Shown: in pieces, positions 5,618-30,224 of the stretch
Position numbering within the stretch: position 1 is the stretch's first letter
Layout: the number at the start of each line of letters is the position of its first letter
Source of the DNA: Granulosicoccaceae bacterium
GTDB taxonomy: Bacteria > Pseudomonadota > Gammaproteobacteria > Granulosicoccales > Granulosicoccaceae
Direction: 5' to 3'
DNA length: 32,000 bases
Assembly (NCBI GenBank): GCA_965224675.1
Contig: CBDDAA010000004.1
Coordinates: 1,387,770 to 1,419,769, forward strand
Program-made: the position numbers and the translations under genes
Notes under the pieces: generated by a model
Database searches by the model: none
What the model was told of the DNA's origin: nothing
What the model saw: only the letters and a program-made list of their open reading frames with translations

Positions 5618-5654
5618 TTGATCGTTGATTCAACAGGCAACCAGATATGGCTTA

Positions 5655-5945
5655 TCAGGCGCCTTCCACTATTGCCAACGTACACTTGGCATTCTCATGA
5701 CGTATCGCTTTTACCGGCGCATATTCTTCAGAGTCTACAAACGCACGAGCGCTATCCATGTCGGGAAACTCGATGATTACGATGCGTGTGGGCGACCATA
5801 GGTCTGCTTCCCGAACATCCAATTCGCCACCTCGAACACGATAGATTCCACCATATTTTTCGGCAATTGGTTTTGCGAGTTTTTTGTAGTCTTCGTAGAC
5901 ATCTGGATTTTCAATCTTAGTGTCTACAAATAGGTATGCGCTCAT
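5655..5945 (-). CDS. DUF1330 family protein
   Basis: 96 aa. 'MSAYLFVDTKIENPDVYEDYKK...YGGIYRVRGGE...VIIEFPDMDSARAFVDSEEY' matches the DUF1330 (dimeric alpha-beta barrel) pattern as I recall it. Confidence 0.65.
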   Translation of the reverse strand: MSAYLFVDTKIENPDVYEDYKKLAKPIAEKYGGIYRVRGGELDVREADLWSPTRIVIIEFPDMDSARAFVDSEEYAPVKAIRHENAKCTLAIVEGA

Positions 5946-6007
5946 AGTGAATCTCCAATTTCATTGTGTATTTAAAGATATAGCATACACTGAGTATTCA
6001 GTATAAT

Positions 6008-10475: not shown

Positions 10476-11573
10476 TTATCGTTGATCAAAATCCACCACG
10501 ACCTCGTCAGATACAGGATGTGCTTGACAAGTCAATATATAACCGGCATCAATCTCATGCTGTTCCAGCGCATGGGTTAAGTTCATGTCAACTTTTCCTT
10601 TCAATAGCCTGGCTTTACAAGTTGAGCAAACACCGGCTTTACAAGCGTAGGGTAGGTCGAGCCCATTATGCATACCCGCATCAAGTATATTCTCGCCCAC
10701 AACTGACAATTGAAAACGAATACTGCGACCATCATATTTCACCGTGACTGTGCTGCTTTTTTCTTCTCCATAGGTGGCAATTCGTTGTTGAGATTTTTCG
10801 AGTATTCTGTGCGTGTCTTCGAATGAATTGGCAAACAGTTCATAATGGATATGGGAATCATCAATCCCCGATGCACGAAATCCCCGGGAAACTTCAGACA
10901 TCATGGCCTCAGGTCCGCAAATAAACACATCGTCTGTTGCAAGAATATCGATTAAGCCACTTTTATGCAGAGCCGTACCTTTCTTATTATCAATAATGCC
11001 GTTGCCCAGATCATAACCCTGATCTTCAGCATTCAAGATGTTAATCCATGAAAAACGATCCAAAAAACGATTTTTGATGAAACCCAGATCTTCCTTGAAC
11101 ATAATCGAGTGACTTTGACGGTTACCGTATATTAAAGTGACATGGCTTTTTGTTTCGATGTGGAGAATGCTTTTAATAATGGAGAGTATGGGTGTGATGC
11201 CGCTGCCGGCAGCAATGCACATGTATTTTTTTTGCGTATTTGCATTGAGTTGGGTATGGAAATTTCCCTGTGGCGGCATCACGTTGATTGGCATACCCGA
11301 TTTGAAATGATCATTGGCATAGTTTGAGAAACTTCCATTACGCACTCGCTTGATTGCGACACGAAGCTGATCTTCATTAATGCCAGAGCAGATGGAATAC
11401 GAACGGTCGATCTGCTCCCCATTGATATTGCAGCGTAAGGTTAGAAATTGTCCTTGAGTGAATCTGAATGTCTCGGTGAGTTTATCCGGTATTGTAAAAG
11501 TGATGCAAATAGCTGATTCAGTTTCTGCCTGAACATCGGCCAACTTAAGTGTGTGGAATTTTTTTTCTGTCAT
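10476..11573 (-). CDS. paaE: 1,2-phenylacetyl-CoA epoxidase reductase subunit (FAD/NAD-binding + plant-type 2Fe-2S ferredoxin)
   Basis: It contains 'RSYSICS' (flavin RxYS), 'CIAAGSGITPILSI' (NAD binding) and C-terminal 'CKAGVCSTCKARL...CQA' (2Fe-2S). I used the ATG at 11573, because the longer ORF to 11708 overlaps paaD. Confidence 0.92.
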   Translation of the reverse strand: MTEKKFHTLKLADVQAETESAICITFTIPDKLTETFRFTQGQFLTLRCNINGEQIDRSYSICSGINEDQLRVAIKRVRNGSFSNYANDHFKSGMPINVMPPQGNFHTQLNANTQKKYMCIAAGSGITPILSIIKSILHIETKSHVTLIYGNRQSHSIMFKEDLGFIKNRFLDRFSWINILNAEDQGYDLGNGIIDNKKGTALHKSGLIDILATDDVFICGPEAMMSEVSRGFRASGIDDSHIHYELFANSFEDTHRILEKSQQRIATYGEEKSSTVTVKYDGRSIRFQLSVVGENILDAGMHNGLDLPYACKAGVCSTCKARLLKGKVDMNLTHALEQHEIDAGYILTCQAHPVSDEVVVDFDQR

Positions 11574-11583
11574 GATAACAACA

Positions 11584-12120
11584 CTATATCGATTTAAAGT
11601 AGTCAAAAGGTTCCAGGCAATCCTGGCACTGGTATAATGCTTTACAGGCGGTAGAGCCAAATTCTGATATCTGGCGTGTTTTGCTACCATGACATTTGGG
11701 ACACGCAATGCTTTCTAAATGACTTTGTCTGCCGCACTGCATATCAGGCGGGGTGATTCCAGACTCGCGCAGACGATTGCGTCCTTCTGGCGAGAGCGCG
11801 TTGCTACTCCATGCAGGCGAGAGCTGTATTTTAATTTCGACCTGTGGGTAATTATTTTCCAACAAAGTGGTGATAATGTCCTCACGCATGACTTCCATGG
11901 CGGGGCAGCCTGAATAAGTCGGGGTGAGAGTTACAACAACGGTGTTATTGTTGTATTCTATATTGGTCAGTACAGCAAGATCCCAAAGGCTTATAACCGG
12001 GATTTCAGGGTCACAGACTGCATCCAGCAGATCCCAAATCACCTTGTTTTTTGATGCTCTACGATGATTTAGCCGTGTCTCATAGAGCGCTGGCTTTTCA
12101 GTGTCTATGCGGTTTCTCAT
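11584..12120 (-). CDS. paaD: 1,2-phenylacetyl-CoA epoxidase subunit PaaD
   Basis: It has 'DPEIPVISLWDLAVL...TPTYSGCPAM' (a SUF/MIP18-like domain) and a C-terminal Cys cluster 'CPKCHGS...CQDCLEPFDYFK'. Its position between paaC and paaE fits. Confidence 0.9.
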   Translation of the reverse strand: MRNRIDTEKPALYETRLNHRRASKNKVIWDLLDAVCDPEIPVISLWDLAVLTNIEYNNNTVVVTLTPTYSGCPAMEVMREDIITTLLENNYPQVEIKIQLSPAWSSNALSPEGRNRLRESGITPPDMQCGRQSHLESIACPKCHGSKTRQISEFGSTACKALYQCQDCLEPFDYFKSI

Positions 12121-12121
12121 C

Positions 12122-12889
12122 TTACCACTGCAACCCTGGCATTGACCGATGCAGGAACTGTAACTCGGTGAGTAAATGGCCTAAATTCTCCGTATGATAA
12201 CCTGATCGGCCACCGCATACAGACCATTGTTGTGTCGGGATGATTAATGCCGCCTCATGCAGAATATCATGCAGCCGGGTTTCCCATTCATCTTTCAATG
12301 CCGTGTTATCAACAGCTATTTTTCTTGCAGCCAGGTTTTTTTCCAGCTCGTCCAGCTCAAACATTTCAGCGCTATATCCACAAAGTGAATCAACTGCTTT
12401 TTGCGTGCGGATATGACTCTCTTGAGTACCGTCTCCAAGCCTTACCACCCACTCTTTGCTACGTCGCAGGTGGTAGCGGGTTTCCTTGATCGCTTTTTCG
12501 GCAATACCTGAAAGCCTTTCATCTTTACACTCAAACAGGCGGGGAAGAAAAATGGCGTTGAACAGATCAACAAACAGCTGTCGTACCATTGTAAAGGCGA
12601 AATCACCGCGAGGTAATTCAACAATTAAGAAATTACGAAACTCTCTTTCGTCCCGCGTATAGGCAAAATCATCTTCAGATTTGCCATTGCCTGATAATTC
12701 TGCTGCGTAGCTGTAGAACATCCGTGCGCGGCCAATGTAATCCAACGCGACATTGGATAATGCGAGATCTTCTTCAAGAAACGGTGCATTGCTCGACCAC
12801 TCTGACAGCCTGTGACCCAAAATAAGGGCGTCATCGCCAAGACGAACAGCGTATTCCAGGGTCGCTTGTTTTTCCTCAATATCGTTCAT
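12122..12889 (-). CDS. paaC: 1,2-phenylacetyl-CoA epoxidase subunit PaaC
   Basis: 255 aa. 'LGDDALILGHRLSEW...APFLEEDLALSNVALDYIGRAR' is a typical PaaC ferritin-like subunit pattern, and the gene order fits. Confidence 0.9.
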   Translation of the reverse strand: MNDIEEKQATLEYAVRLGDDALILGHRLSEWSSNAPFLEEDLALSNVALDYIGRARMFYSYAAELSGNGKSEDDFAYTRDEREFRNFLIVELPRGDFAFTMVRQLFVDLFNAIFLPRLFECKDERLSGIAEKAIKETRYHLRRSKEWVVRLGDGTQESHIRTQKAVDSLCGYSAEMFELDELEKNLAARKIAVDNTALKDEWETRLHDILHEAALIIPTQQWSVCGGRSGYHTENLGHLLTELQFLHRSMPGLQW

Positions 12890-12972
12890 CTATACTGCGC
12901 TCTATATAAATCACTGGTATTTTTTTAGATTTGATTGATGCCAATTTAAAAAAAATTAACCGGATTTATTCA

Positions 12973-13260
12973 TCACATATTATCGACTTCATCAGGCAGT
13001 TTGTAGTGCCCTGCGTGACGATAAGGTTTGTCATTCGATGGCTCGTAAAAACTCTCTGCATCTTCTTCCTGTGAAGCGCATATATCCGCTGATTTTACAA
13101 CCCAGATACTGACACCCTCGCTGCGCCGGGTGTAGCAGTCGCGTGCGTATTTTAACGCCTGCTCATGATCCGCCGCGTGCAGACTGCCGAAGTGCTTGTG
13201 ATCCAGTCCGCGACGAGAGCGTATAAAAACTTCATATAATTCAAGATGATTGTTTGGCAT
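12973..13260 (-). CDS. paaB: 1,2-phenylacetyl-CoA epoxidase subunit PaaB
   Basis: 95 aa from ATG 13260 ('[29 protein letters not shown]...'). The 142-aa ORF-track version overlaps paaA heavily and is treated as an artefactual extension. Confidence 0.9.
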
Positions 13261-14215
13261 TGTTTTCTCTTTTAACATTGTTGTGCATAGAGCGCTGTTT
13301 CTTTTCTTCATAGGCATGCAAGGCTTCACGTACCCAGGCACCGTCCTCGTGTGCCTGGATGTGATGCTGTAAACGCTGTCGATTACAGTGGCCATTGCCA
13401 TTGATTACGCTATAAAACTCGTTCCAATCAATTTCACCATGATCAAAGTGGCCTCGTTCGTTGTTCCACTTTAGCTGTGAATCGGGGTGTTTAAGGTCAA
13501 GGTATTTAATCTGTGGTGCGGTTTGGTCAATAAACTTCTGGCGCAGATTATCGTTGGTTTCACGTTTTATTTTCCAGGCCATTGAACGAGAGGAGTGTGC
13601 CGATTCTCGATCATGCGGTCCGAACATCATTAGTGATGGCCAGTAAAAACGATCCAGTGCGTCTTGCGCCATTTGCTTTTGCTTTTCACTGCCTTGGCAT
13701 AATGCCAACATGATTTCATAGCCCTGGCGTTGGTGAAAGCTCTCTTCTTTGCAAATACGAACCATCGCTCTGGCGTAAGGACCATAGGAAGTTCGTTGCA
13801 GAGAAATCTGATTGACAATGGCGGCACCATCAACCAGCCAACCTATAGCCCCAATATCGGCCCAGGTTTGAGTGGGATAATTAAAAATAGAGGCATATTT
13901 TGCCTTGCCGCTTTGCAGTGCAGATATCATCGCCTGTCGACTGATACCAAGCGTCTCTGCAGCGCTATAAAGATATAATCCATGACCACCCTCGTCTTGT
14001 ATTTTTGATAACAAGACAGCTTTGCGTCTTAAGGAGGGTGCGCGGGTTATCCAGTTTCCCTCTGGCTGCATGCCAATGACTTCGGAGTGTGCATGTTGAG
14101 AAATTTGACGAATGAGGTTTTGCCGATAATCTTCAGGCATCCAGTCCCTGGGTTCAATGCTATCGTCTTGCTCAATTAACTTATCGAAGCGGGATTGTTG
14201 CGATGGTGTGCTCAT
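13241..14215 (-). CDS. paaA: 1,2-phenylacetyl-CoA epoxidase catalytic subunit PaaA
   Basis: It shows di-iron ferritin-like motifs: '[13 protein letters not shown]', '[12 protein letters not shown]' and '[11 protein letters not shown]'. It is first in the paaABCDE order. Confidence 0.93.
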
Positions 14216-14276
14216 ATCTGCGCGTCACCTGTATGCCGATCATAAATGAAAAAGAATGTTGTCTTTATGTAACTAT

Positions 14277-14320
14277 ATATGATACATAATTTCCTTTCAA
14301 TACTAATTTCATGTATCGTA
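14277..14320. promoter_or_regulatory. Candidate PaaX operator pair in the paaA/paaX divergent promoter region
   Basis: TATATGATACATAAT lies at 14277-14291. An inverted partner ATGTATCG lies at 14312-14319 (reverse complement CGATACAT). The half-site starts are 31 bp apart. The same TATGATACA core recurs upstream of paaF and paaK. Confidence 0.4.
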
Positions 14321-14433
14321 TTAAGAAGGGTTGAATTTTATGAATAAACTCTGTTGTGCTCACTTGAAAGAGTCGGGTTTATAGCCTGTTGCCTGTTCAA
14401 TTTAATGGCTGCTTCTGAGAATATATTAATTAA

Positions 14434-15366
14434 ATGCCCGATTCCTCGATCAAACAATTAGTTGAAAAACGCTTTGAGCAATTTAAAGGTGCGGATTTCA
14501 ACTCCACGCCTTACCTGATCATGACGCTTTTTGGTGATAGCGTCATTCCGCATGGTGGTGAGATATGGCTGGGTAGCCTGGTGCAATTGCTACAGCCGCT
14601 TGGCATTAGCGAACGCCGGATCAGAACATCCGTCTTTCGACTGACCAAGGATACCTGGTTGGAAAGCAGGAAGATCGGTAGAAAAAGTTATTACAAGCCT
14701 TGTCATGTCGGTGAAATTGAACGAAATGAACTGCGGATATACTATCAGCAGGAAAAATGGGATGGAAACTGGCGTCTGCTGTTGGGCGTTTCAACGGAAA
14801 AAGCCAAACCTCAACGCGATGAATTTAGAAAAATACTGCTTAAGAACGGATTCTGCGCAATAGCGACAGGCGTTTTTGGTCACCCGACCATTGCTTTTGA
14901 TGAGATAGACAGGCTGCTAAAAAATTATCAGCAAGCACATGCTTATATCGTTATGAGTGCGCGTAATCCAGATGGCTCTGCGCTTGATTTTCAGCGAGTG
15001 GGTCAGGTGATGCATCGCTGTAATATGGATCATTTGGAGCAAGAGTACCTGGCTTACATAAAGCGCTATCAAGCCATTTTTAATCTGCGCACTCAAGCAA
15101 ATCATTTAAATCGTGAGCAATGTTTTTTACTTAGAACACTGTTGATCAATGACTATCGTCATTTGCTTTGGCATGATGTTGTACGTTCTAATTTGCTGTT
15201 AGGTGAAGACTGGGCAGGCAAACATGCACGGCACATTGTTGCATCGATTTATTGTTGTATTGAAGAAAAGGCCCGTGAGTATTTTTGTGAAATAGGGGAG
15301 AATGATGCCGGACAACTTCCGGCGATGGCACCGCGATTCAGAGAACGCTTCAAGCATCTGATCTGA
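14434..15366 (+). CDS. paaX: Phenylacetic acid degradation operon repressor PaaX
   Basis: 310 aa. 'LIMTLFGDSV...GGEIWLGSLVQLLQPLGISERRIRTSVFRLTKDTWLESRKIGRKSYY' is the PaaX winged-helix N-terminus. The gene is divergent from paaA. Confidence 0.9.
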   Translation: MPDSSIKQLVEKRFEQFKGADFNSTPYLIMTLFGDSVIPHGGEIWLGSLVQLLQPLGISERRIRTSVFRLTKDTWLESRKIGRKSYYKPCHVGEIERNELRIYYQQEKWDGNWRLLLGVSTEKAKPQRDEFRKILLKNGFCAIATGVFGHPTIAFDEIDRLLKNYQQAHAYIVMSARNPDGSALDFQRVGQVMHRCNMDHLEQEYLAYIKRYQAIFNLRTQANHLNREQCFLLRTLLINDYRHLLWHDVVRSNLLLGEDWAGKHARHIVASIYCCIEEKAREYFCEIGENDAGQLPAMAPRFRERFKHLI

Positions 15367-16014: not shown

Positions 16015-16278
16015 TTTTCTCGTTTATCCGTAGTACTGAAAGGTGTATTCGGCACTATAGCATTTATATTGCCCAACGGCTGCAATCGTTAAATATTCAC
16101 CCTGGCCATATTAGTGGATGATTAATAATAAGCAATTTTTTTGTCAGTGAAGCGCTGGCATATAGTTTTTCCAATTAAAATTATTTCAAAATCGGGTTTA
16201 AAAATATTCACATTACCCACGAGTGCTCTTTTCTATAAATTGCATAATTGTCTGATATTAAATAAATAAATTCTAATT

Positions 16279-16290
16279 GTGATCGATCAC
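16279..16290. promoter_or_regulatory. Perfect 12-bp palindrome GTGATCGATCAC in the hlyIII / ATPase divergent intergenic region
   Basis: Read directly from the sequence. It lies about 89 nt upstream of ATG 16379. Its function is unknown. Confidence 0.25.
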
Positions 16291-16378
16291 CGGGTTTATA
16301 TTCGATTAAAAATGGCTTGCGGTATTGGTATTTATAGCGTTTATGCTCTACATTACACCCTCTGACTCGGGAGTGGTT

Positions 16379-18967
16379 ATGAGTAAAAAAAACAAGAAAA
16401 CATGCAGGATTGTGGTTGCGGGCGACATCAGTATAGATTGGCTGCATTATTCTGTGTCTGGGGAGCCTATGTCCACAGATTCGGAAGCTAAAGCTTCTAA
16501 TTGGCGGTTGAATCCCGGTACACGGATGGTAGCAAAGCCTGGAGGCGCGTTATTACTGGCCCGTATGGTGAAGAGTGCGACTAAAGCCAAGATCGATGCA
16601 CCCAAGCTCGATAATCTCGAAAAAATATCGCCAGTAAAAACAGTACATTCTGTTGTTCAGTTAGATGCTTTTCCCGCTTCTAAATCCAATAACGATAAAA
16701 GTCCGGATTGTTTTCGAATTAAGCAAGAGTGTGGATTTGCGGGTCCTGAAAATGGCAATCCAACACCCCGTCAGGTCAATAAAAACATCAGCAATGCCGA
16801 TATTGTTATTCTCGATGATGCAGGTAACGGGTTTCGTGATAATAAACTAGTCTGGCCCCGGGCCTTGGCTAAAGGCAGGAAACCGATCATTATATTTAAA
16901 ATGAATCAGCCCATAGCACAAGGTGCATTGTGGCGCACTGTCCTGAATCGACATGCCGAGCGGACAGTTGTAGTTGTTAGCGCCGATGACTTGCGTGCTG
17001 AAGGCGTAAATATAAGCCAGCGCTTATCATGGGAGCGAACGGCCAAGGATTTCATGTGGCAACTGGTTCATAATCCAACACTTAAAGCACTACGCCACTG
17101 TCAGCATCTGATTGTTCGTTTTGGAATTGATGGTGCAATTTATAGTCGCCTGAAAGATAAGAGCGTGATTAAGTCGCAATTCTACTACGACCCTCTAATG
17201 GTCGAGAATGGTTTCGGTAATGAGTATCCCGGGGGAATGCTCGGTTTTAACTCAGCATTTGTAACCTCTTTGGCTGCATGGATTGCGCAAAAGAAAGGGA
17301 AAAATAAAAAGAAACTGGAAGGCATCGGCGAAGGCGTGAAAGACGCCATATACAGTGCCCGCCGACTCTATGTTGAAGGATTCGGACCGATCGATAAACA
17401 ACAACCGGATTATCCTTGTGGTAAAATATTTGGATCAAAAACCAGTCAAGACGCACTTCTAGCCTCTATTCCTATACCGATTCCTACAGATTTTGAATCC
17501 GTCTATCCAGAGTCCTGGGGAATCCTGGAGAATAAGAGTCGCTCCCAATTGGAGAAATTGGCCAGAAATATTGTTCTTAAGGGAATCAATAAATCGACGA
17601 AGAGGGCACCTATTGGCGAATTTGGTCTCTTGAAAACCCTCGACCGAACCGAGATTGAAAGCTTTTACAGCATCAAAAATTTGATTCTTGAGTATCTGCA
17701 GACCCCGACAACACAGCGACCTTTATCCATCGCCGTGTTTGGTCCACCGGGGTCAGGTAAGTCTTTTGGTGTTACTGAAGTGGCTAAAAGCGTGGCGCCG
17801 GGAAAGATTAAAACAATAACATTCAATGTATCGCAATTTCAGACACAGGATGATTTAAGCAAAGCCTTTCATAAAGTACGGAATATTGTCTTGGGCGGTG
17901 ACGTGCCTCTTGTATTTTTTGATGAGTTTGACTCGGCGAAAGATGAGAAACTCGGTTGGTTGAAATTCTTCCTCGCACCCATGCAGGATGGCGAGTTCAA
18001 AGATGGTGAGTCAATGCACCCCATTGGCAGGGCTATCTTTGTTTTTGCGGGCGGGACCAGCTCGCGTTATGAGGATTTTTGTTGTGGTAAAGAAACTGAT
18101 CCAGAGCAAGAAAAATATGTACAGCGCTTTGTTGAGGTTAAAGGCCCGGATTTTATCAGCCGGCTGCGTGGATATGTCAATATACTGGGAATAGATGCAA
18201 AAGATGATAAGCTCTATATGGTGCGCCGTGCTATTATTTTAAGATCCATATTGGAGCGTTTCTATCCGAATCTGATTGAAAACGAAACTAAAAAAGTTCG
18301 AATTGACCCGGCTGTATTGGCTGCAATAATCAACGTTCGAAAATACAAGCATGGTGTAAGATCTATGGGCGCCATACTGGAGATGAGCCTGCTAGTAGGC
18401 CGGCGTCGTTTTGAGCAAGCCTGCCTGCCATCTGAAGAGCAACTTAAACTACATGTTGATGCGACAGAATTTAAACGCCTGGTGGACCTTGACGTACTCA
18501 TTCCCAGTCTGCGTGAGAAATTGGGCAAAGTCATCCATGAACACTACAGGAAAAATCAAAAAGGTAAAAAGAAACATGATGATCCGTCAATGAAAGAGTG
18601 GAGTCAACTTGACCCGGGTCTTAGACGATCTAATCGACAACAGGCACGTGATATTCCAGAGAAACTAAGGAGTGTTGGATGTGCTTACATCCCGGTTATC
18701 GGGCGCAAAGTGAAACAATTCCATTTCACCAAGAATGAGCTAAATACCCTTGCTAAAAAGGAACACAAACGCTGGCTTAAAGAACGTATACAAGACGGAT
18801 GGGTTTATGGAGAGAAGAGATGCGTTAAAAAGAAAATCAGTCCCTACCTGATTGAGTGGGAGAAACTGGATGATGCGGTCAAACAAAATGACTATGATGT
18901 AATTGAGCATATTCCATTACTGATGGAAAGTGCAGATCTGGAAATTATACGATTGAATAACGAGTAA
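16379..18967 (+). CDS. Uncharacterised multidomain protein: degenerate PfkB/ribokinase-like N-terminal module + classic AAA+ ATPase + two C-terminal RyR-like repeats
   Basis: ATG 16379 follows a GGGAG RBS, while the track start at 16325 is a TTG. PfkB-order motifs are 'RIVVAGDISIDW', 'KPGGALLLARMV', 'ADIVILDD', 'VVVVSADDLRAEG' and 'LIVRFGIDGAIY', but the GAGD site reads 'PGGMLGFNSAF' (17219-17260). Walker A is GPPGSGKS (17741-17764) and Walker B is LVFFDEFD (17909-17932). The RyR-like 'EHKRWLKERIQDGWVYGEKR...PYLIEWEKLDDAVKQNDYD' and an upstream repeat span 18521-18940. Confidence 0.8.
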   Translation: MSKKNKKTCRIVVAGDISIDWLHYSVSGEPMSTDSEAKASNWRLNPGTRMVAKPGGALLLARMVKSATKAKIDAPKLDNLEKISPVKTVHSVVQLDAFPASKSNNDKSPDCFRIKQECGFAGPENGNPTPRQVNKNISNADIVILDDAGNGFRDNKLVWPRALAKGRKPIIIFKMNQPIAQGALWRTVLNRHAERTVVVVSADDLRAEGVNISQRLSWERTAKDFMWQLVHNPTLKALRHCQHLIVRFGIDGAIYSRLKDKSVIKSQFYYDPLMVENGFGNEYPGGMLGFNSAFVTSLAAWIAQKKGKNKKKLEGIGEGVKDAIYSARRLYVEGFGPIDKQQPDYPCGKIFGSKTSQDALLASIPIPIPTDFESVYPESWGILENKSRSQLEKLARNIVLKGINKSTKRAPIGEFGLLKTLDRTEIESFYSIKNLILEYLQTPTTQRPLSIAVFGPPGSGKSFGVTEVAKSVAPGKIKTITFNVSQFQTQDDLSKAFHKVRNIVLGGDVPLVFFDEFDSAKDEKLGWLKFFLAPMQDGEFKDGESMHPIGRAIFVFAGGTSSRYEDFCCGKETDPEQEKYVQRFVEVKGPDFISRLRGYVNILGIDAKDDKLYMVRRAIILRSILERFYPNLIENETKKVRIDPAVLAAIINVRKYKHGVRSMGAILEMSLLVGRRRFEQACLPSEEQLKLHVDATEFKRLVDLDVLIPSLREKLGKVIHEHYRKNQKGKKKHDDPSMKEWSQLDPGLRRSNRQQARDIPEKLRSVGCAYIPVIGRKVKQFHFTKNELNTLAKKEHKRWLKERIQDGWVYGEKRCVKKKISPYLIEWEKLDDAVKQNDYDVIEHIPLLMESADLEIIRLNNE

Positions 18968-19512: not shown

Positions 19513-21543
19513 TTAGAGGTTTGCCACCATCGTCAATACATCATAGCGTGCAATTACCGCCTCATCCTGATTTGTTATTTCAGCATGCCAGCGCACCTCG
19601 CCATAAACCTCGCCAATGCGATCTGTTTTCTGCTTGCAGGTCAATGCGACTTTAAGATCATCGCCGGTATAGACCGGCAGCAAAAAACGTAGATTGTCCA
19701 CTCCATAATTAGCCAATACAGGCCCGGGGTTGGGTTCAACAAACAGGCCGGCGGCAAGGGATACAATAAGGTATCCGTGTGCAACACGGCCTGCAAAAAA
19801 CGGATTGGCTTTGGCCGCTGCCTCGTCCATATGCGCGTAGAAATTGTCGCCGGTAAATTCGGCAAAATGCTCAATGTCGTCCAGTGTTATGGTGCGTGAT
19901 TCAGAGGTTAAGCTATCACCAATTTTCAGCTCGTTAAATGTTTTTCGAAAAGGGTGCTGTTTTCCGTGATTGCGAGCCGAGCCGGGTATCCATTGACCGA
20001 TTAGGCTGCTGAGCTGATCCGGTGAACCCTGAAGTGCGGCGGTTTGCAGGTAATGTTTTATACTACGCAACCCACCCATTTCTTCGCCACCACCTGCACG
20101 ACCTGGCCCACCGTGTAATAACCTCGGCAGTGGTGCGCCGTGCCCCGTGGATTCTACGGCACAATCTCTGTTGAGTAGCAGTATGCGACCATGATGTGCG
20201 GCCAGGGCGAATACTGCATCTGCGGCGAAACAGTTATCATAGGTAGCAATGGACGCGACCAATGAGCCTTGGCCGAGTCTTGCCAGCTCCAGCATCTCAT
20301 TATTGTTTTTATAGGGCATGATTGTCGTGACCGGTCCAAAGGCTTCGATGTGGTGTACACGATGACTGCTTAGTGGATTTTCACAACGCAAGATTATCGG
20401 TGATAAAAAAGCGCCCTGTTGGCTATCCGCGTCGAGCACATCGCAGGAAAACGGGTCACCATAAATAATCTGTGCATCTTTTTGCAGCTCAGAGATTGCA
20501 TCACGAACATCCTCGCGCTGCTTGTGATTAATCAATGCACCCATATCCACCGCGCAATTGTCAGGGTCACCGATGCTAATTTTATCCAGCTCGTTGCGTA
20601 AAACCTCTGCAACTGCGTCGGCTAAATTCTCTGGAATGATTGCCCGGCGAATTGACGTGCAGCGTTGACCACATTTAATACTGATCTCATCGACAATCTG
20701 CCTTATATACAGCATAAATTCAGGACTGTCTGTATCGCTGTCCGGGCCAAGAATGGAGCAGTTTAACGAATCCGACTCCATCAGGAAGCGTATGGAGTTT
20801 GATTGAACAATCGGGTGATTCCTCAGCATTTGTCCGGTACTGGCCGAGCCGGTAAAGGCGATGCAGTCCTGGTAATCCAGATGCTCGAATAAGTCACCCA
20901 CGCTGCCACTGATAAACTGCAGAGAACCTTCGGGAAAAATGCCGGATTCGATTATTCGTTGGAACATCAAGGCTGTCAAAAAGGCCGAACTGCTGGCAGG
21001 TTTTACAATGCTCGGCACACCGGCGAGCAGTGAAACTGAAAGTTTTTCCAGCATGCCCCAGCAGGGAAAGTTAAATGCATTGATATGCATAGCCGCGCCT
21101 TCAATTGGAACCTGAATGTGCTGACCAACAAAGCTGCCGTTTTTCGACAAAGGCTCAGTTATGCCATCGACAATAAATCGGGCATTTGGCAATTCCCGAC
21201 GGCCGGTGCCTGAGTAGGAAAATAAAGCCTGAATACCGCCTTCAATATCGATCCACGAGTCACGCTGAGTGGCCCCGGTGGCGCTGGACAGTGCATAGAA
21301 CTCTTGCTTGTGTTCGAGCAGATGCAGTGCAAGTTGCTTTAGTTTTAGTGCACGTTCATGGAATGTTAATTTCTGTAAGGCATAACGGCCTTCGGTTCTT
21401 GCATGGTTTAATAATGCAGCTGTGTCCAGTCCACCGCTTTTAATTTGCGCAACGGGTTCACCTGTGATGGCGTTTTGCAGGATTGTTGCTGTACCCGTTC
21501 CTGAGATCCACTGCCCCTGAACGTAGCTTTGCAGGCATTTCAT
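19513..21543 (-). CDS. paaZ: Bifunctional oxepin-CoA hydrolase / 3-oxo-5,6-dehydrosuberyl-CoA semialdehyde dehydrogenase (ALDH + MaoC hotdog)
   Basis: 676 aa. The N-terminal aldehyde dehydrogenase part shows 'FTGSASTG' and 'ESDSLNCSIL...GQRCTSIRR'. The C-terminal MaoC part shows 'FAEFTGDNFYAHMDEAAAKANPFFAGRVAHGYL'. Confidence 0.92.
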   Translation of the reverse strand: MKCLQSYVQGQWISGTGTATILQNAITGEPVAQIKSGGLDTAALLNHARTEGRYALQKLTFHERALKLKQLALHLLEHKQEFYALSSATGATQRDSWIDIEGGIQALFSYSGTGRRELPNARFIVDGITEPLSKNGSFVGQHIQVPIEGAAMHINAFNFPCWGMLEKLSVSLLAGVPSIVKPASSSAFLTALMFQRIIESGIFPEGSLQFISGSVGDLFEHLDYQDCIAFTGSASTGQMLRNHPIVQSNSIRFLMESDSLNCSILGPDSDTDSPEFMLYIRQIVDEISIKCGQRCTSIRRAIIPENLADAVAEVLRNELDKISIGDPDNCAVDMGALINHKQREDVRDAISELQKDAQIIYGDPFSCDVLDADSQQGAFLSPIILRCENPLSSHRVHHIEAFGPVTTIMPYKNNNEMLELARLGQGSLVASIATYDNCFAADAVFALAAHHGRILLLNRDCAVESTGHGAPLPRLLHGGPGRAGGGEEMGGLRSIKHYLQTAALQGSPDQLSSLIGQWIPGSARNHGKQHPFRKTFNELKIGDSLTSESRTITLDDIEHFAEFTGDNFYAHMDEAAAKANPFFAGRVAHGYLIVSLAAGLFVEPNPGPVLANYGVDNLRFLLPVYTGDDLKVALTCKQKTDRIGEVYGEVRWHAEITNQDEAVIARYDVLTMVANL

Positions 21544-21551
21544 CGTGTGCC

Positions 21552-22154
21552 TTATACCTTGTTTTTTAGTGCGGCGAGGGTTTTGTAGTCAATTTTGATT
21601 TTACCGCGATTGGGTTCGGGTTTATGCAACGGCGTTGTTTCCTGCATGGACTGCTGACTGCGAATGGCGAGTTGTTGGTAGATTTCTGTGCCCTGGCTTT
21701 TCCAGTTGATCTCTTTCTCAGAAAGTTCACGGATAACTTTGGCGGGGGAGCCGACGATCAGACTGCGGGCGGCAAATTTATTTTCACCCTTAACAAATGC
21801 CATCGCCCCGACAATACAGTTTTCACCAATTTCTGCTTCATCCATAATAACCGCATTCATTCCAATCAGTGCATTTTTACCGATGCGGCAACCGTGCAAA
21901 ATTGCCCCGTGACCAATGTGGCCATATTCTTCAACCAGAGTGGTAATATTAGGGAAACCGTGCATCACACAGGTATCTTGCAGATTGGCGTTCGTTTGAA
22001 TCCTGATGGGGCCAAAGTCACCTCGTAATACCGCGCAGGGTCCGATATAACAACCCTCATCAATGATCACATCGCCGATTAAAACAGCCGTGGGATGTAC
22101 ATAGGTATTGGGCCGGACGACGGGTCGAATCCCGTCAATTTCATAACTGGGCAT
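21552..22154 (-). CDS. paaY: Hexapeptide-repeat (gamma-CA-like) phenylacetate pathway thioesterase/acyltransferase PaaY
   Basis: 200 aa. The left-handed beta-helix repeats include '[29 protein letters not shown]...[24 protein letters not shown]'. The gene is adjacent to paaZ. Confidence 0.85.
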
Positions 22155-22217
22155 AGAGGTGTCTCGTCAGGTTGAGCAGCTTGATATGTTACAAAAAAAG
22201 TGGAAATATTGCAATTA

Positions 22218-22226
22218 GTGTATCAT
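22218..22226. promoter_or_regulatory. Candidate PaaX operator half-site in the paaY/paaF divergent region
   Basis: GTGTATCAT at 22218-22226 is the reverse complement of ATGATACAC; in wider context it reads ATTATGATACAC. A weaker TGATATGT lies at 22182-22189. Confidence 0.3.
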
Positions 22227-22227
22227 A

Positions 22228-23055
22228 ATGAGGCGTATTTCATTGAGTATGACAATGTCTTCTACGTTCATCCCGTCTTCTTCCTGTCACGATATTGAAA
22301 TCAGTTCATCACTACCGGGCGTGGTTCAAATCAAGCTGATCAGGGCACAATCAAAGAACGCGTTGCGTAATCAGACACTATCGGAAATTGCCAGCGTACT
22401 GATTGATTCGAAGAATGATTCGTCTGTAAAATGTGTTGTGATCACTGGCAGTGAAAGCGTATTCGCTGCAGGGGCTGATATCAAAGAGATGCAGGCTTTG
22501 AACCCCCTGAGCAGTTTGATGAATTCACGTGCGAATGACTGGAAAACCATCAGACATTACCCCAAACCTTTGCTTGCAGCGGTGAACGGATATGCGCTGG
22601 GTGGTGGCTGCGAATTGATGATGCACTGCGATATCGTTATTGCCGGAGATAATGCATTGATCGGTCAACCTGAAATTAATTTGGGCATAATACCCGGTGC
22701 TGGCGGTACGCAGCGTCTGGTACGATCAGTAGGAAAATCATTGGCGATGAAAATGATTCTTACAGGAGAATTTATCGATGCTGAGCATGCGTTGCAGGCA
22801 GGTCTGGTCGCTGAAGTCTGTCCTCGGGAAGTGACCCTGAAACGATGTTTGGAAATTGCAGGATCAATCGCAAAAAAGGCACCTCTGGCGCTGCGTCTGG
22901 CAAAAGAAGCGGTGCTCAGTGCCTACGAGGTGCATCTGCAAGCTGGCCTGGAATTGGAACGCCGCGCATTTGCCATTCTTGCTGCCAGTAAAGACAGGGA
23001 GGAAGGTATCACGGCATTTATGCAGAAACGCAAGCCTGAATTTAAAGGTGAATAG
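22228..23055 (+). CDS. paaF: 2,3-dehydroadipyl-CoA hydratase (crotonase family)
   Basis: It contains 'VVITGSESVFAAGADIKEM' and 'AAVNGYALGGGCELMMHCDIVIAG...GQPEINLGIIPGAGGTQRL'. The start is uncertain: 22228, 22249 or 22255. Confidence 0.88.
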   Translation: MRRISLSMTMSSTFIPSSSCHDIEISSSLPGVVQIKLIRAQSKNALRNQTLSEIASVLIDSKNDSSVKCVVITGSESVFAAGADIKEMQALNPLSSLMNSRANDWKTIRHYPKPLLAAVNGYALGGGCELMMHCDIVIAGDNALIGQPEINLGIIPGAGGTQRLVRSVGKSLAMKMILTGEFIDAEHALQAGLVAEVCPREVTLKRCLEIAGSIAKKAPLALRLAKEAVLSAYEVHLQAGLELERRAFAILAASKDREEGITAFMQKRKPEFKGE

Positions 23056-23181
23056 AGGTTTACGCAAGAGTTCAATAGAAGATTATGTATTAACAAAATC
23101 AATGAGAGAATAGTTGCCAAATATGGGCTTCTTTCAGCTATCCATTTCTTAATGTGTATTTGACATGAGACAATACCTGAT

Positions 23182-23979
23182 ATGACAGAAATCTATAACA
23201 CAATAAAGCTTGAGTTCGATAACGGTGTTGCAATCTTGACACTAAATCGGCCAGAAAAGCTGAACAGCTTTAATCAGGAAATGTTTCGCGAAATCAGGGT
23301 TGCATTTAAACAGATAATGCAAGAAAATGGCGTACGTTGTTTATTGATTACGGGTGCGGGAAGAGCATTTTGTGCAGGTCAGGATCTGGCAGATAGAAGC
23401 ATAAAAGCCGGTGACGAACCAGCGGATTTAAGCCGATCTTTAGAGGAAAATTATAACCCCCTGATCAGAAAAATAACCCAACTTGAGATGCCGGTGATTT
23501 GTGCGGTTAACGGGGTGGCTGCAGGTGCAGGTTCAAGTTTTGCACTTGCCTGCGATATCGTATTTGCTGCCCGATCTGCCAGTTTCATTCAATCATTCTG
23601 CAAGCTTGGTGTTATTCCCGATTCGGGTGGGTCATGGTTACTACCGCAACTTGCCGGGCGAGCGCGGGCAATGGGCCTGGCCATGCTGGGTGAGAAACTC
23701 AGTGCTGATCAGGCTCAGCAGTGGGGATTAATCTGGCAGTGTATTGATGATGACAAATTAATGTCAGAGGCGACAAGTACGGCCCGTTTTCTGGCGACTC
23801 AGCCAACAAAAGGGTTAGCTTTAATTAAACGCGCAATTATAGCTTCAGCGAGTAACAGCTTGCATAAACATCTGGATTTAGAACGGGATTTGCAAGGCAT
23901 TGCCGGGCGAACTGATGATTATCAGGAAGGTGTTTCTGCCTTTATGCAGAAACGATCAGCAACCTTTACCGGCAAATGA
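23182..23979 (+). CDS. paaG: 1,2-epoxyphenylacetyl-CoA isomerase (crotonase family)
   Basis: It contains 'LLITGAGRAFCAGQDL' and 'CAVNGVAAGAGSSFALACDIVFAA...FCKLGVIPDSGGSWLLP'. It sits between paaF and paaH. Confidence 0.88.
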   Translation: MTEIYNTIKLEFDNGVAILTLNRPEKLNSFNQEMFREIRVAFKQIMQENGVRCLLITGAGRAFCAGQDLADRSIKAGDEPADLSRSLEENYNPLIRKITQLEMPVICAVNGVAAGAGSSFALACDIVFAARSASFIQSFCKLGVIPDSGGSWLLPQLAGRARAMGLAMLGEKLSADQAQQWGLIWQCIDDDKLMSEATSTARFLATQPTKGLALIKRAIIASASNSLHKHLDLERDLQGIAGRTDDYQEGVSAFMQKRSATFTGK

Positions 23980-25499
23980 CGGTGACTGCGATGACACCGT
24001 CACAAATTGTTGGGGTGGTTGGCGCCGGAACGATGGGTGCTGGTATTGCCCAGGTGGCTGCAAAATACGGGCACACAGTTAAGTTGTATGATCAATCTCC
24101 GGTGTCTGTGAAAAAAGGTCTTTCCAGCGTGACTGAAGGTTTGGAAAAACTGCAATCTCGGGATCGTATAAGCACGCAGGAAATTAAAACGTTATTGGCA
24201 AATATCGAATCATGTGACGCGCTGGAACAGTTGGCACAATGCGATCTGGTTATAGAAGCGATTGTTGAAGATCTGGCGTGCAAGCAAGCTTTATTCGTTC
24301 AGCTCGAATCGATCTGTAGCAATGATACAATCTTTGCAACGAATACTTCTTCAATCTCCATCACTGCAATTGCCTCAGTATTGCAGCGCCCTGAACAGTT
24401 GGCAGGCATGCACTTTTTTAATCCCGCGCCGGTTATGAAGCTGATCGAAGTTGTATCAGGCTTGGCTACGTCGGCTGATGTGGCCACGATAATTGCCAAT
24501 ACCGCCAGCGCCTGGGGGAAAAAAACAGTACAGGTGAAATCCTCTCCAGGTTTTATTGTCAATCGCGTCGCCCGACCATTTTATGCTGAAACACTACGGT
24601 TACTTGAAGAAGAGGTGGCATCACAGGCTACTTTGGATGCGATTGTGCGAGAGGGTGGTGGCTTTCGTATGGGGCCTCTGGAACTGATGGATCTTATTGG
24701 ATTGGATGTAAACTATGCCGTCACTGAATCCGTTTTTCATGCTTTTTATCAGGACCCGCGCTTTTTGCCATCCCTGTTACAAAAAGAGCGGGTCGATGGC
24801 GGGTTTCTGGGCCGCAAATCAGGCAGAGGATTTTACATCTATGGCGACAAGAGCGTATTGTCAGAGCCGCAAACACGGGAATCAGCGCTCTGTCCCCGGT
24901 CGGTTGAAATTCTTGGAGACTTAGGCATAGCAGCAGGTTTGATGCAGAAGCTCGAAGAAGCCGGGCTGCAAAAAAAACACGCAGATGGCCCAGGTCTGAT
25001 TCTATGCGGCGATGCCACTTTGGCACTCACTGATGGTCGAACTGCCACTCGCCGATCTTATGAAGAGGGGATTGAAAATCTGGTGCTATTTGATTTGCAG
25101 GGCGACTACGCACAACACACACATATTGCCATTGCTGCATCACTATCGGCCTCGAAAATAGCCCTTGAGCAAGCGATAGGATTTTTTACACGATTGGGGA
25201 AATCGGTCAGTGTATTGAAGGATACGCCAGGTTTATGCTTAATGCGTATTGTTTGCATGTTAGCCAACGAAGGAGCGGATGCGGTCAATCAAGGGGTTTG
25301 TAATGTAACCGCTGTTGATCGCGCCATGCGCTATGGCTTGAATTATCCGCAGGGACCCATGGCGTGGGCAGATAAAATGGGTCTGCAGAACGTTTGCACA
25401 GTACTGGGCAATTTACAAAAAAGCTACGGACTTGATCGTTATCGCACCTCGCTGTTACTACAGCAGTTATCACATGTAGGGAAGAAACTGTATGATTGA
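23976..25499 (+). CDS. paaH: 3-hydroxyadipyl-CoA dehydrogenase
   Basis: It has an N-terminal Rossmann motif 'VGVVGAGTMGAGIAQVAA', plus 'HFFNPAPVMKLIEVV' and 'PGFIVNRVARPFY'. It is the long form with a duplicated C-terminal domain. An ATGA overlap joins it to paaG. Confidence 0.9.
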   Translation: MTVTAMTPSQIVGVVGAGTMGAGIAQVAAKYGHTVKLYDQSPVSVKKGLSSVTEGLEKLQSRDRISTQEIKTLLANIESCDALEQLAQCDLVIEAIVEDLACKQALFVQLESICSNDTIFATNTSSISITAIASVLQRPEQLAGMHFFNPAPVMKLIEVVSGLATSADVATIIANTASAWGKKTVQVKSSPGFIVNRVARPFYAETLRLLEEEVASQATLDAIVREGGGFRMGPLELMDLIGLDVNYAVTESVFHAFYQDPRFLPSLLQKERVDGGFLGRKSGRGFYIYGDKSVLSEPQTRESALCPRSVEILGDLGIAAGLMQKLEEAGLQKKHADGPGLILCGDATLALTDGRTATRRSYEEGIENLVLFDLQGDYAQHTHIAIAASLSASKIALEQAIGFFTRLGKSVSVLKDTPGLCLMRIVCMLANEGADAVNQGVCNVTAVDRAMRYGLNYPQGPMAWADKMGLQNVCTVLGNLQKSYGLDRYRTSLLLQQLSHVGKKLYD

Positions 25500-25941
25500 A
25501 AAATCAGATAATCAATTGGCGCATGCCTGTACAGAGGCATTGCATGAAAATGATTTTATGGCGAAGCGCTCTGGCATGAATCCGGTTTCACTGGCCCCCG
25601 GTAAAGCGGTCGTTACCATGCACATATGCCGGGAGATGCTCAATGGGCATAAAAGCTGTCATGGAGGAATGATATTTGCCCTTGCCGATACAGCCTTTGC
25701 GCATGCTTGCAATAATCGTAATGAAGTTAATGTGGCGATGGATTGTAGAATTGATTTTATCAAACCCGCTTACGAAGGTGATGAGTTGACAGCAACGGCC
25801 TGTGAACTTCACAAGGGTCGTAGCAGTAGCTTATATCAAACCAGCGTTCGCAATCAGCATGGTAAGATAATTGCGCTATTCCAGGGTCGCTCCCACCAAC
25901 TCAATAAACCCGTTATTGAACCTGAAATATATGAGTGTTAA
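25492..25941 (+). CDS. paaI: Hydroxyphenylacetyl-CoA thioesterase (hotdog fold)
   Basis: 149 aa. 'LNGHKSCHGGMIFALADTAFAHACN' is the PaaI-type hotdog catalytic region. It overlaps paaH by 8 nt. Confidence 0.88.
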   Translation: MIEKSDNQLAHACTEALHENDFMAKRSGMNPVSLAPGKAVVTMHICREMLNGHKSCHGGMIFALADTAFAHACNNRNEVNVAMDCRIDFIKPAYEGDELTATACELHKGRSSSLYQTSVRNQHGKIIALFQGRSHQLNKPVIEPEIYEC

Positions 25942-25986
25942 TGCAATCTCGCAAGGGCAATTACTGTTTCAGGTTAATGAGTGATT

Positions 25987-27201: not shown

Positions 27202-27283
27202 ATTTATTATGATTTGTATGGAGGTACACTCCCATCGACAACTCTATGTTGTTAAAATATTATCAGTAATTCCAGCAGTAAAT

Positions 27284-27291
27284 TGATACAT
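27284..27291. promoter_or_regulatory. Candidate PaaX operator half-site upstream of paaK
   Basis: An exact TGATACAT lies in the 118-bp paaJ-paaK spacer, about 29 nt upstream of ATG 27320. Confidence 0.3.
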
Positions 27292-27319
27292 ACCTTGAAG
27301 CCAGCAACGGGAAAACGCT

Positions 27320-28612: not shown

Positions 28613-28640
28613 TGAGAGTCACTGCGCAGAAGGATCTGTT

Positions 28641-29840: not shown

Positions 29841-30014
29841 TCAGTGCTGAAACATTACATTGGCGGATAAGGCAACTTGCAATTTTACTCAGATCTCTAT
29901 AAATTTGATTTCGATCAAAACATTTTTTAGAAGTGAAGCTTTAGTCTCCTCATACGGTGTTATGGTTCACTTCCAAGCGCTTAGCCCTTTGTTTTTGTAT
30001 TTTCACAGATTAAT

Positions 30015-30150
30015 AGCCTGTTGAAAAAGTCTCTGATGAGTATCAGGCAAGGCAAAATCAGACGAAAAAACGCAATTTATACGCAGTAAATGAGTATTTT
30101 GAGCCTGATTTTAACGCCGCATGATGCCGTCAGAGGGTTTTCAATGGGCT
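30015..30150. repeat. Imperfect 136-bp nested inverted repeat (REP/MITE-like element or structured RNA)
   Basis: There are three colinear complementary arm pairs. 30015-30027 pairs with 30138-30150 (11/13). 30031-30036 pairs with 30130-30135 (6/6). 30054-30061 pairs with 30105-30112 (8/8). The internal loops are a symmetric 17/17 nt. Confidence 0.4.
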
Positions 30151-30224
30151 GTTAGAAATAGTTGTTATCTGAAACCAGTATTTAATTCAACGTACAAAAA
30201 TATACTTAAAAAGAGGAATACATT

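Follow-up and report, generated by a model that had tools for sequence, protein, structure and literature searches.

What is the function of a bacterial protein in which a predicted sugar-kinase-like head, an AAA+ ATPase and a tail of ryanodine-receptor (RyR) repeats are joined in a single chain? The question is raised by an 862-residue protein encoded in a 32,000-nucleotide stretch of genome from a Granulosicoccaceae bacterium (contig CBDDAA010000004.1, positions 1,387,770 to 1,419,769). This whole stretch is referred to as the window and coordinates are counted from its first letter. An earlier, sequence-only reading described the protein as an orphan, composed of a degenerate PfkB-like module, an AAA+ module and two RyR repeats, and proposed that it might be a small-molecule-gated switch serving conflict or stress signalling as a single gene. 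The reading that we favour, tentatively and with a little less than an even chance of being right, is that of a nucleotide-signal-regulated AAA+ protein belonging to conflict (immune-type) networks that are centred on nicotinamide adenine dinucleotide (NAD) and ADP-ribose (ADPR) in bacteria and archaea.

The open reading frame (ORF) exists as described, and all peptide motifs quoted from it are found in its translation. The three folds are likewise supported: the head by structure prediction, the AAA+ and RyR domains by Pfam and by structure comparison (Foldseek). The AlphaFold2 (AF2) model of the full-length protein has a pLDDT of 86.1 and a pTM of 0.76. A GGGAG Shine-Dalgarno sequence (16369-16373) lies five bases ahead of the ATG at 16379; the N-termini of homologues align to this ATG, which is the start, and not to the upstream TTG at 16325. 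The intergenic stretch ahead of the gene presumably holds its own promoter; a promoter scan of this stretch returned no more sites than were found in shuffled sequence. The places first assigned to the Walker A and Walker B motifs and to the repeats (18521-18940, residues 715-854) were correct, and the PGGMLGFNSAF motif is present, but its start had been put at 17219, which is 9 nucleotides too early. The features of the gene are as follows; here and below, counts out of 40 refer to columns of an alignment of 40 full-length homologues.

16015..16378, forward strand: AT-rich intergenic stretch of 364 nucleotides 5′ of the ORF, read from sequence
16379..18967, forward strand: complete ORF, 862 codons plus stop, with ribokinase-fold head (predicted), AAA+ ATPase and tandem RyR/Repeat12 tail
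16403..17398, forward strand: head, residues ∼9-340, predicted ribokinase/PfkB-like fold with a non-canonical active-site region (Foldseek of the domain model)
17228..17260, forward strand: PGGMLGFNSAF, residues 284-294, putative equivalent of the PfkB GAGD anion hole and catalytic Asp (inferred register)
17291..17314, forward strand: KKGKNKKK, residues 305-312, lysine-rich insertion within the head (model and alignment)
17399..17668, forward strand: linker and N-terminal extension of the ATPase chassis, residues ∼341-430 (AF2 secondary structure)
17669..18478, forward strand: AAA+ ATPase module, residues ∼431-700 (Pfam PF00004)
17741..17764, forward strand: Walker A, GPPGSGKS, residues 455-462 (G455, P457, G458, G460 and K461 each 40/40)
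17909..17932, forward strand: Walker B, LVFFDEFD, residues 511-518 (V512, F513, F514, D515, E516 and D518 each 40/40)
17993..18022, forward strand: predicted beta-hairpin ahead of sensor 1, residues 539-548 (DSSP on the AF2 model)
18158..18175, forward strand: SRLRGY, residues 594-599, with candidate arginine finger(s) R595 and R597 (S594, R595 and L596 40/40; R597 39/40)
18350..18364, forward strand: HGVRS, residues 658-662, with candidate sensor-2 arginine R661 (H658, G659, R661 and S662 each 40/40)
18503..18694, forward strand: RyR repeat 1, residues ∼709-772, divergent, lacking the GWxYG loop (hhalign to repeat 2)
18731..18952, forward strand: RyR repeat 2, residues ∼785-858, canonical PF02026 (Pfam and alignment to RyR2)
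18764-18766, 18773-18775 and 18890-18892, forward strand: H796, W799 and D838 of repeat 2

By analogy with other proteins of its fold, the tail, rather than the head, appears to be the best-supported ligand sensor. Repeat 2 matches PF02026 at residues 788-843 (E 3.2e-12; 46.9 bits against a cut-off of 27.4), and a sequence search of the PDB returns ryanodine receptors (E ∼1e-10 to 5e-15) together with a Bacteroides ‘putative ryanodine receptor’. Repeat 1 is detected by neither Pfam nor phmmer, so that only repeat 2 is visible by sequence. Nevertheless the two repeats proposed for the C-terminus are both real: comparison of residues 703-782 with residues 783-862 across the 40 homologues (hhalign; probability 96.4%, E 1.3e-9) shows them to be homologous, and a hidden Markov model (HMM) of repeat 2 matches repeat 1 in every one of the 40 sequences. 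The missing loop of repeat 1 is ten residues long and its layout in the AF2 model is helix-helix-strand. The tail model aligns over ∼190 columns with crystal structures of human RyR3 Repeat12 (TM-score ∼0.5-0.57, identity 22-25%; Foldseek), including the ATP-, ADP- and dantrolene-bound forms (PDB 6uhh, 9l9b); Repeat12 of RyR3 binds all three of these ligands (PMC12627627).

A second comparison is provided by phage RyR proteins, which bind 2′/3′ cyclic ADP-ribose (cADPR) at nanomolar affinity or cleave it, thereby defeating Thoeris (PMC13232231; 10.64898/2026.06.04.730250); that their pocket is common to RyR3 Repeat12 is noted by both 2026 preprints (PMC13232231; 10.64898/2026.06.04.730250). 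The ligand contacts of RyDEP are H75, W78, H100 and D117 (PMC13232231), and those of RyR Tad include H129, W132, H154 and D171 (10.64898/2026.06.04.730250). This spacing (His, an aromatic residue at +3, a residue at +25 and Asp at +42) maps to H796, W799, S821 and D838, a correspondence that rests on residue numbering in the text of the papers and not on structural superposition. The His is present in 40/40 homologues, position 799 is W, F or Y in 40/40, and the Asp is present in 39/40. Position 821, equivalent to the phosphate-contacting His, is more variable (29 Ser, 5 His, 4 Asn, 2 Thr) and is Ser in the window protein. At the aligned contact positions repeat 1 has H720, Y723 and N752.

The resemblance to RyDEP and RyR Tad thus extends to a Repeat12-type helical fold and to the His-x-x-Trp ... 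Asp contact pattern. The phage proteins, however, are virus-encoded, ∼120-180 residues long, form the pocket as a homodimer and act as anti-Thoeris sponge or glycosidase, whereas the tail is a predicted intramolecular pseudo-dimer of fused repeats at the end of a large cellular protein with an ATPase and a head. Animal ryanodine receptors (PDB 6uhh, 9l9b, 9ls7) likewise have a pseudo-symmetric tandem-repeat domain, the site of ATP, ADP and dantrolene binding, but there Repeat1-2 has a peripheral, regulatory place in a Ca2+ channel of 5,000 residues; in the window protein it forms the C-terminal end of a soluble ATPase, and its repeat 1 is truncated. With its Pfam match, its pair of pseudo-symmetric repeats and its contact His, Trp and Asp, the window protein is a bona fide PF02026 protein. 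The first suggestion, that a nucleoside or a sugar phosphate gates the protein, found no support.

The protein is also a bona fide AAA+ protein. The ATPase module scores 26.1 bits against PF00004 (cut-off 21.2), has the AAA+ fold and carries the Walker A Lys and the Walker B Asp-Glu; judged by conservation, its catalytic residues are shown to be intact. R595 and R597 are candidate arginine fingers, by motif analogy, and R661 is a candidate sensor-2 arginine. The strands of the predicted hairpin (539-542 and 545-548) fall between helix 526-537 and strand 553-557, and F540, H547 and P548 are invariant; on the model, this element is probably a pre-sensor-1 hairpin. Structural matches are to FtsH, ClpC, ClpB-D2, ORC2 and dynein (Foldseek; probability 1.0). 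A profile of the module matches PDB sequences weakly (Mpa/ARC 2e-4, Torsin 3e-3, plus Rpt subunits), the best match covering the Walker A-B half only, and assignment of the ATPase to a clade by profile search was given up because these matches are too weak to decide. Clp/Hsp100-D2, Torsin and the classic AAA proteins Mpa and Rpt are nonetheless its nearest structural and sequence neighbours, weakly matched as they are (best E 2e-4), and have in common with it the two Walker motifs, A and B, as well as candidates for an arginine finger and for the sensor-2 Arg. Proteins of the classic AAA clade have neither a pre-sensor-1 hairpin nor a sensor-2 arginine. The classic-clade label given to the module at first is therefore doubtful: the nearest sequence matches, Mpa and Rpt, agree with it, but the predicted hairpin and the invariant R661, if it is the sensor-2 arginine, do not. 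The STAND NTPase model nSTAND5 (PF25199) gives the window protein 13.5 bits, well under its cut-off of 34; some RyR-less relatives carry a precomputed match to this model.

On the predicted structure, the head stands as a ribokinase/PfkB fold. The AF2 model of the head alone (pLDDT 88.5, pTM 0.89) finds only PfkB/ribokinase kinases among its top 50 Foldseek matches in the PDB (HldA, ribokinase, ketohexokinase, adenosine and nucleoside kinases, PfkB), with E-values from 2.4e-10 to 1e-6, TM-scores of ∼0.45-0.55 and identities of 10-14%. Sequence-level proof of homology was sought in four ways, all of which failed. Pfam gave no PfkB (PF00294) match for the head at E ≤ 1; a 20-sequence head profile gave 0 matches in the PDB at E ≤ 10; hhalign against E. 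coli RbsK gave a probability of 0.8%; and an exhaustive head-profile search of 1.84 billion representatives did not reach canonical kinases, the top 150 of 2,014 clusters being the fusion family or fragments of it. The PfkB-like assignment is thus borne out as a fold (Foldseek E 2e-10) but not by any sequence-level PfkB signal.

With PfkB/ribokinase kinases the head shares the whole fold, including the beta-sheet lid, the GG dipeptide and, in a manual alignment with ribokinase, an acidic pair at the strand end where ribokinase has its substrate-binding Glu. Unlike them it shows no profile similarity, lacks the GAGD Asp and the NXXE motif and, in the sequences examined, is always fused to the AAA+ chassis. 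The active-site register was set by manual alignment onto the AF2 secondary structure and is to be read accordingly. In this register position 290 would be the equivalent of the PfkB catalytic Asp; its five commonest residues, which cover 36 of the 40 sequences (L16, F10, V5, I3, A2), include no acidic one. M287 and G289 are the only invariant residues in 283-294, and residue 290 opens helix 290-306. At the equivalent of NXXE the homologues have A-(D/N)-D-L-R, in which D204 and R206 do not vary and Arg replaces the Mg-bridging Glu. These alignments support the absence of the canonical kinase catalytic Asp from the head, its position appearing hydrophobic family-wide, as had been suggested from the single sequence.

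The term degenerate does not fit this module. Within residues 1-345, 31 positions are invariant in the 40 full-length homologues (47 in the 20-sequence head alignment), among them G15, D16, G55, D146, D147, N150, R153, K174, D204, R206, S217, W218, E219, T221, D271, E276, M287, G289 and R328; D20 and G56 are each present in 39/40. Neither is KKGKNKKK the linker it was taken for: it sits between the last two head helices of the AF2 model (290-306 and 316-333), and homologues, which read ‘..GL..(I/V)GEGV’ at the same place, lack it, so that it is an insertion specific to the window protein. The real linker comprises residues ∼340-385.

Far from being an orphan, the protein belongs to a family of at least 1,843 clusters at 90% identity, the top 120 of which are full-length and 45-58% identical to it; the head profile recovers at least 2,014 clusters at 50% identity, with the head N-terminal in proteins of ∼850-1,000 residues in nearly all of the top 150. 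Members occur in at least 405 species genomes from many bacterial phyla (Clostridium, Pelosinus, Planctomycetota, Aminicenantes, Gemmatimonadota, Chloroflexota, Desulfobacterota, Actinomycetes) and several archaeal orders (Methanosarcinales/ANME-2, Methanobacteriaceae, Methanomassiliicoccales, Methanosphaerula), and carry only the database names ‘RyR domain-containing protein’, ‘AAA family ATPase’ and ‘Ryanodine receptor Ryr’. One sequence is fungal: a full head-AAA-RyR protein from the black yeast Hortaea werneckii (P0341, 869 residues, 35 member sequences, 31% identity), which reflects either horizontal transfer into a eukaryote or contamination. Clostridium magnum DSM 2767 has two family copies, on different contigs and with different neighbours (loci L035 and L046; L-numbers are locus labels). 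A phage origin was rejected: a tblastn search of 50,697 phage records gave no family match at E ≤ 1e-5, and Foldseek against BFVD returned one small phage RyR protein (Arthrobacter phage Xenomorph, E 1.5e-4) and otherwise generic AAA+ matches. Plasmid copies were found on only 3 of 72,556 plasmids.

HMMs of head, chassis and repeat 2 were built and run on 381 retrieved proteins. About 270 have head, chassis and RyR, a few with extra repeats; ∼50 have head and chassis without RyR (for example archaeal L058 and L063, and the Streptomyces plasmid copy); and ∼9 have chassis and RyR without head. All sampled proteins with a head and an ATPase domain use the same AAA chassis. From this census head and ATPase emerge as an obligate core, to which the RyR tail is a frequent addition.

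Gene surroundings were compared at 80 genome loci, 6 metagenome loci and 3 plasmid loci. No single conserved partner gene emerged when the 1,102 ORFs of the 80 genome loci (crudely called) were clustered, the largest non-self cluster being present at 15 of the 80. Among the 136 ORFs that immediately flank the family gene the commonest Pfam domain is RyR (9), followed by MCPsignal (6), TrkA_N (6) and TIR_2 (5). Twelve loci contain additional RyR genes; of the 13 such genes that could be compared with a called family gene, 10 adjoin it, mostly in the same direction (binomial P 9e-7, the expectation being the 140 of 950 ORFs that fall at this offset). The adjoining genes encode TrkA_N-RyR, RelA/SpoT-LSDAT(SLOG)-RyR and dual-specificity-phosphatase-RyR proteins, ∼100-residue RyR-only proteins (L006, L026, L066), TIR-STAND-TPR, MshEN-TIR and DUF4062-NACHT proteins, and proteins with multiple transmembrane segments and SLATT domains whose head looks SLOG-like by eye. 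The RyR domain seems to be a C-terminal module common to varied heads:

L022:11646-14225, L066:12538-15180, L019:12892-15618, L085:16277-18847: RelA/SpoT, TPR-like, LSDAT_prok (SLOG) and RyR
L013:8573-10474, L011:2394-4205, L016:8657-10483, L075:5911-7707: ∼600 residues, hydrophobic N-terminal segments (by eye), TrkA_N and RyR
L011:7619-8659: 346 residues, dual-specificity-phosphatase-like and RyR

The first of these, a protein of ∼860 residues that recurs near or next to the family gene, joins prokaryotic relatives of the ligand domains of TRPM and RyR channels with an alarmone-synthetase-like head.

Among the closest relatives (49-58% identity, six contexts, precomputed Pfam) five of six have a TIR, DUF4062-STAND or SLOG gene within three genes. 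At L084 these are TIR-STAND-WD40, DUF4062-STAND-WD40 and TIR genes; at L085 RelA/SpoT-LSDAT-RyR, DUF4062 and NACHT-TPR genes; at L087 there is a faint LSDAT match directly upstream; and at L088 and L089 a DUF4062-NACHT gene is adjacent. A transposase lies directly upstream at L085 and L086. Plasmid copies lie beside integrases in Streptomyces and near a 2,082-residue SIR2-family protein and a transposase in Methylobacterium. In the latter case (L082, Methylobacterium sp. FF17 plasmid pA) the ‘SIR2 family protein’ is encoded at 302-6550 on the reverse strand, and ∼1.4 kb separates it from a distantly related member of the family (30% identity), with the transposase and a helix-turn-helix gene between them. 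Adjacency to RyR, TIR, SLOG and STAND genes is thus shown to be tight in a substantial minority of loci. It makes the proposed conflict or signalling role plausible; the description as a single-gene module holds for the window and most Bacillota loci, but at other loci a RyR, TIR or SLOG gene often accompanies it.

At two loci the neighbour is itself a paralogue in which a TIR domain takes the place of the head:

L018:12709-14691, forward strand: TIR_2, chassis and RyR, 660 residues, directly following the orthologue in a Methanobacteriaceae metagenome-assembled genome
L006:2347-3906, forward strand: TIR_2 and chassis without RyR, 519 residues, directly preceding the orthologue in Desulfomonile

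Both align with the window protein from residue ∼356-386 onward, with chassis identities of 40% (L018, window residues 386-859) and 36% (L006), and in both the ATPase motifs have decayed (GPPYSGKT, VVFFKNFD and SGLHGY in L018; GPPNTGQL and LVFWEGFD in L006). The L018 copy has its own neighbour as its closest relative (59% identity) and therefore arose by local duplication and head swap. The idea that the TIR-headed form is a common sister family was dropped, given that duplicate and the small number of full-length clusters (about three). As read from these sequences, the paralogues show that the head slot is apparently open to a signal-making or NAD-cleaving enzyme domain; their decay suggests that they are pseudo-ATPase partners in mixed oligomers.

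These observations – the folds, the intact ATPase, the conserved contact residues, the adjacent TIR, SLOG, STAND and RyR genes, the head swap and a patchy, cross-domain distribution with two copies in one genome, transposases and plasmid copies – are what speaks for a signal-regulated AAA+ protein of conflict networks. In such a protein the Repeat12-type tail would bind an adenine-containing ligand (a TIR-made cADPR isomer, ADPR or ATP/ADP), as the conserved His/Trp/Asp contacts and the known ligands of the fold indicate. Occupancy of the tail could then set AAA+ assembly or ATP turnover, and the ATPase would drive or release the head. Because its pocket is highly conserved but the canonical kinase base is missing, the head may bind ribose or a nucleotide, serving as effector or second sensor, or conceivably act as a non-canonical enzyme. 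The window copy is a solo unit with its own upstream region; it is placed inside a phenylacetate cluster and has no partner gene anywhere in the 32 kb.

Several points weigh against this reading. The phosphate-contacting His of RyDEP (H100) is Ser in the window protein, and since animal Repeat12 binds plain ATP and ADP, a ligand unrelated to immune signalling would also fit. The ∼50 tailless relatives indicate that the tail is not essential to the core activity. The neighbours in the window are ordinary and include no TIR, SLOG or STAND gene. The same holds for ∼40 Clostridium- and Pelosinus-type loci, where the neighbours are methyl-accepting chemotaxis proteins, histidine kinases, ABC transporters and HAD hydrolases, and no TIR, SLOG or STAND genes were seen. 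Half or more of the family, the window copy included, has no conflict-type context. The offset test speaks only to the adjacency of RyR and TIR genes when they are present, and PADLOC matches among the 136 flanking ORFs are sparse (mad8 3, SAVED_TIR 3, ThsB 2).

Such points lend themselves to the rival that survives best, itself unlikely, namely that the family is a housekeeping regulator of metabolic or energy state in which ATP/ADP is sensed by the tail and a sugar or nucleoside by the head, the AAA+ module acts on a client as remodeller or chaperone, and mobile elements and conflict play no part. The ordinary neighbours in the window and at most Bacillota loci speak for such a protein, as do the lack of matches in the phage records and the rarity on plasmids, and Repeat12 has been solved with ATP and ADP (PMC12627627), ATP/ADP sensing having been proposed for animal RyR. 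Identity is ∼50% across phyla, which is unusual for fast-evolving immune genes. What this explanation leaves unaccounted for is that no neighbour or pathway is kept in any lineage, that the distribution is patchy across domains of life, and that TIR, SLOG, SLATT, STAND and RyR genes lie tightly adjacent in many lineages, alongside paralogues with a swapped TIR head.

It is distinctly unlikely that the head is an active, highly divergent kinase or phosphotransferase whose substrate is a metabolite or signal that contains ribose (nucleoside, ADPR or NAD derivative), with the AAA+ and RyR modules serving only to regulate it. Sugar and nucleoside kinases do fill its top 50 structural matches; many of the 31 invariant positions are charged (D16, D146, D147, R153, K174, D204, R206, E219, D271, E276, R328); the GG dipeptide and the G249..G252 turn are kept; invariant D271 and E276, just upstream of the lost GAGD, could supply the base; and the slot filled by the head is held in the paralogues by TIR, an enzyme. 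Set against this are the hydrophobic residue at the catalytic Asp position, the (D/N)DLR segment in place of NXXE, where an invariant Arg stands for the Mg-bridging Glu (manual register), and the failure of any PfkB profile to detect the head.

There is a slim prospect that the tail is a host-side terminator or buffer, cleaving or sequestering cADPR-type signals and so resetting or dampening TIR signalling. Both residues of the RyDEP catalytic dyad have counterparts in H796 (40/40) and D838 (39/40) (PMC13232231), and the small RyR-only genes next to the family gene might be read in the same way. The dyad is not diagnostic, however, because the same residues are found in phage homologues of the sponge type, which are not catalytic (PMC13232231); moreover a sponge needs no 700-residue head and ATPase, and the tail is dispensed with in ∼50 of 381 relatives. 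A role in phenylacetate catabolism or its regulation, suggested by the position of the gene between paaX and paaZ, is effectively refuted and very improbable, since no paa genes were seen at any of the 80 genome, 6 metagenome and 3 plasmid loci.

Returning to a signal-regulated AAA+ protein of conflict networks, its nearest analogue among known systems is Thoeris. At most the window protein resembles a ThsA-type sensor-effector, possibly sharing its logic, in which a sensor that binds a nucleotide is joined to an output module; several loci, a minority, have TIR genes next to the family gene, and TIR-headed paralogues exist. Unlike ThsA it has neither a SLOG or Macro sensor nor a SIR2 or transmembrane effector. 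Its freedom from assignment to a named system holds: no PADLOC 2.0 model is matched (best mad8, E 0.04), NCBIfam offers no equivalog (QatA only at E 0.087), and none of the 29 window ORFs scanned with Pfam is a TIR, SLOG or STAND gene. It thus falls outside Thoeris, outside the PfkB kinases in sequence and catalytic motifs, and outside the STAND NTPases. Nor was a characterised protein of this three-part architecture, which the sequence-only reading had been unable to name, found in the literature searched (RyR with SLOG, SLATT, LSDAT, AAA, PfkB or nSTAND5), where no cellular PfkB-like/AAA+/RyR fusion is described. By analogy, the family may be a large, fixed-architecture class of nucleotide-sensor-coupled NTPases of conflict systems, not previously described in that literature.

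A more far-reaching proposal, which we regard as doubtful, is that RyR/Repeat12 is a host receptor domain for TIR-made (cADPR-type) or related signals, that the family comprises Thoeris-like effectors, switched by AAA+ and with a ribokinase-derived output, and that the phage sponges are captured host copies. No cellular counterpart of the signal-soaking phage domains is reported in the literature searched, yet thousands of cellular proteins wire the same domain, with the same contact residues, to an ATPase. If the tail is a signal receptor, these would constitute a new sensor-effector class, RyR/Repeat12 would be a further sensor class beside SLOG, SAVED, CARF and Macro, and the origin of the phage sponges would be explained. 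They would also make Repeat12 of human ryanodine receptors, the dantrolene site and a nucleotide-binding domain that is poorly understood, accessible in a tractable bacterial system. The head, lacking a kinase base, poses the question of new enzyme chemistry versus a repurposed binding module. Should the tail prove to be a housekeeping ATP/ADP sensor, this is still a large unannotated family deserving of a name.

In the window, the genes run in the order PaaE-D-C-B-A (reverse), PaaX (forward), HlyIII (reverse), the 862-residue gene (forward), a glyoxalase (forward), PaaZ and PaaY (reverse) and PaaF/G/H/I/J/K (forward). HlyIII, the 862-residue gene and the glyoxalase-family gene are thus lodged between paaX and paaZ. 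Insertion by a mobile element was considered and rejected, there being no flanking repeats, integrase or transposase in the window and no clear GC shift. The remaining features of the window are:

10476-15366 and 19513-28612: complete phenylacetate degradation cluster in divergent blocks, paaEDCBA (reverse strand), paaX (forward strand), paaZ and paaY (reverse strand), paaF/G/H/I/J/K (forward strand)
7207-10191, reverse strand: 994-residue ORF; Pfam matches to D-2-hydroxyacid dehydrogenase NAD-binding and related NAD-binding domains at residues ∼678-832 only, the first ∼670 residues having no Pfam match
72-5617, forward strand: type IV pilus assembly block with a T2SSF fragment, a prepilin-like gene, PilM, PilN, PilO, an unassigned 124-residue ORF and the PilQ secretin
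28416-31798: major facilitator superfamily transporter and TRAP transporter (DctP, DctQ)

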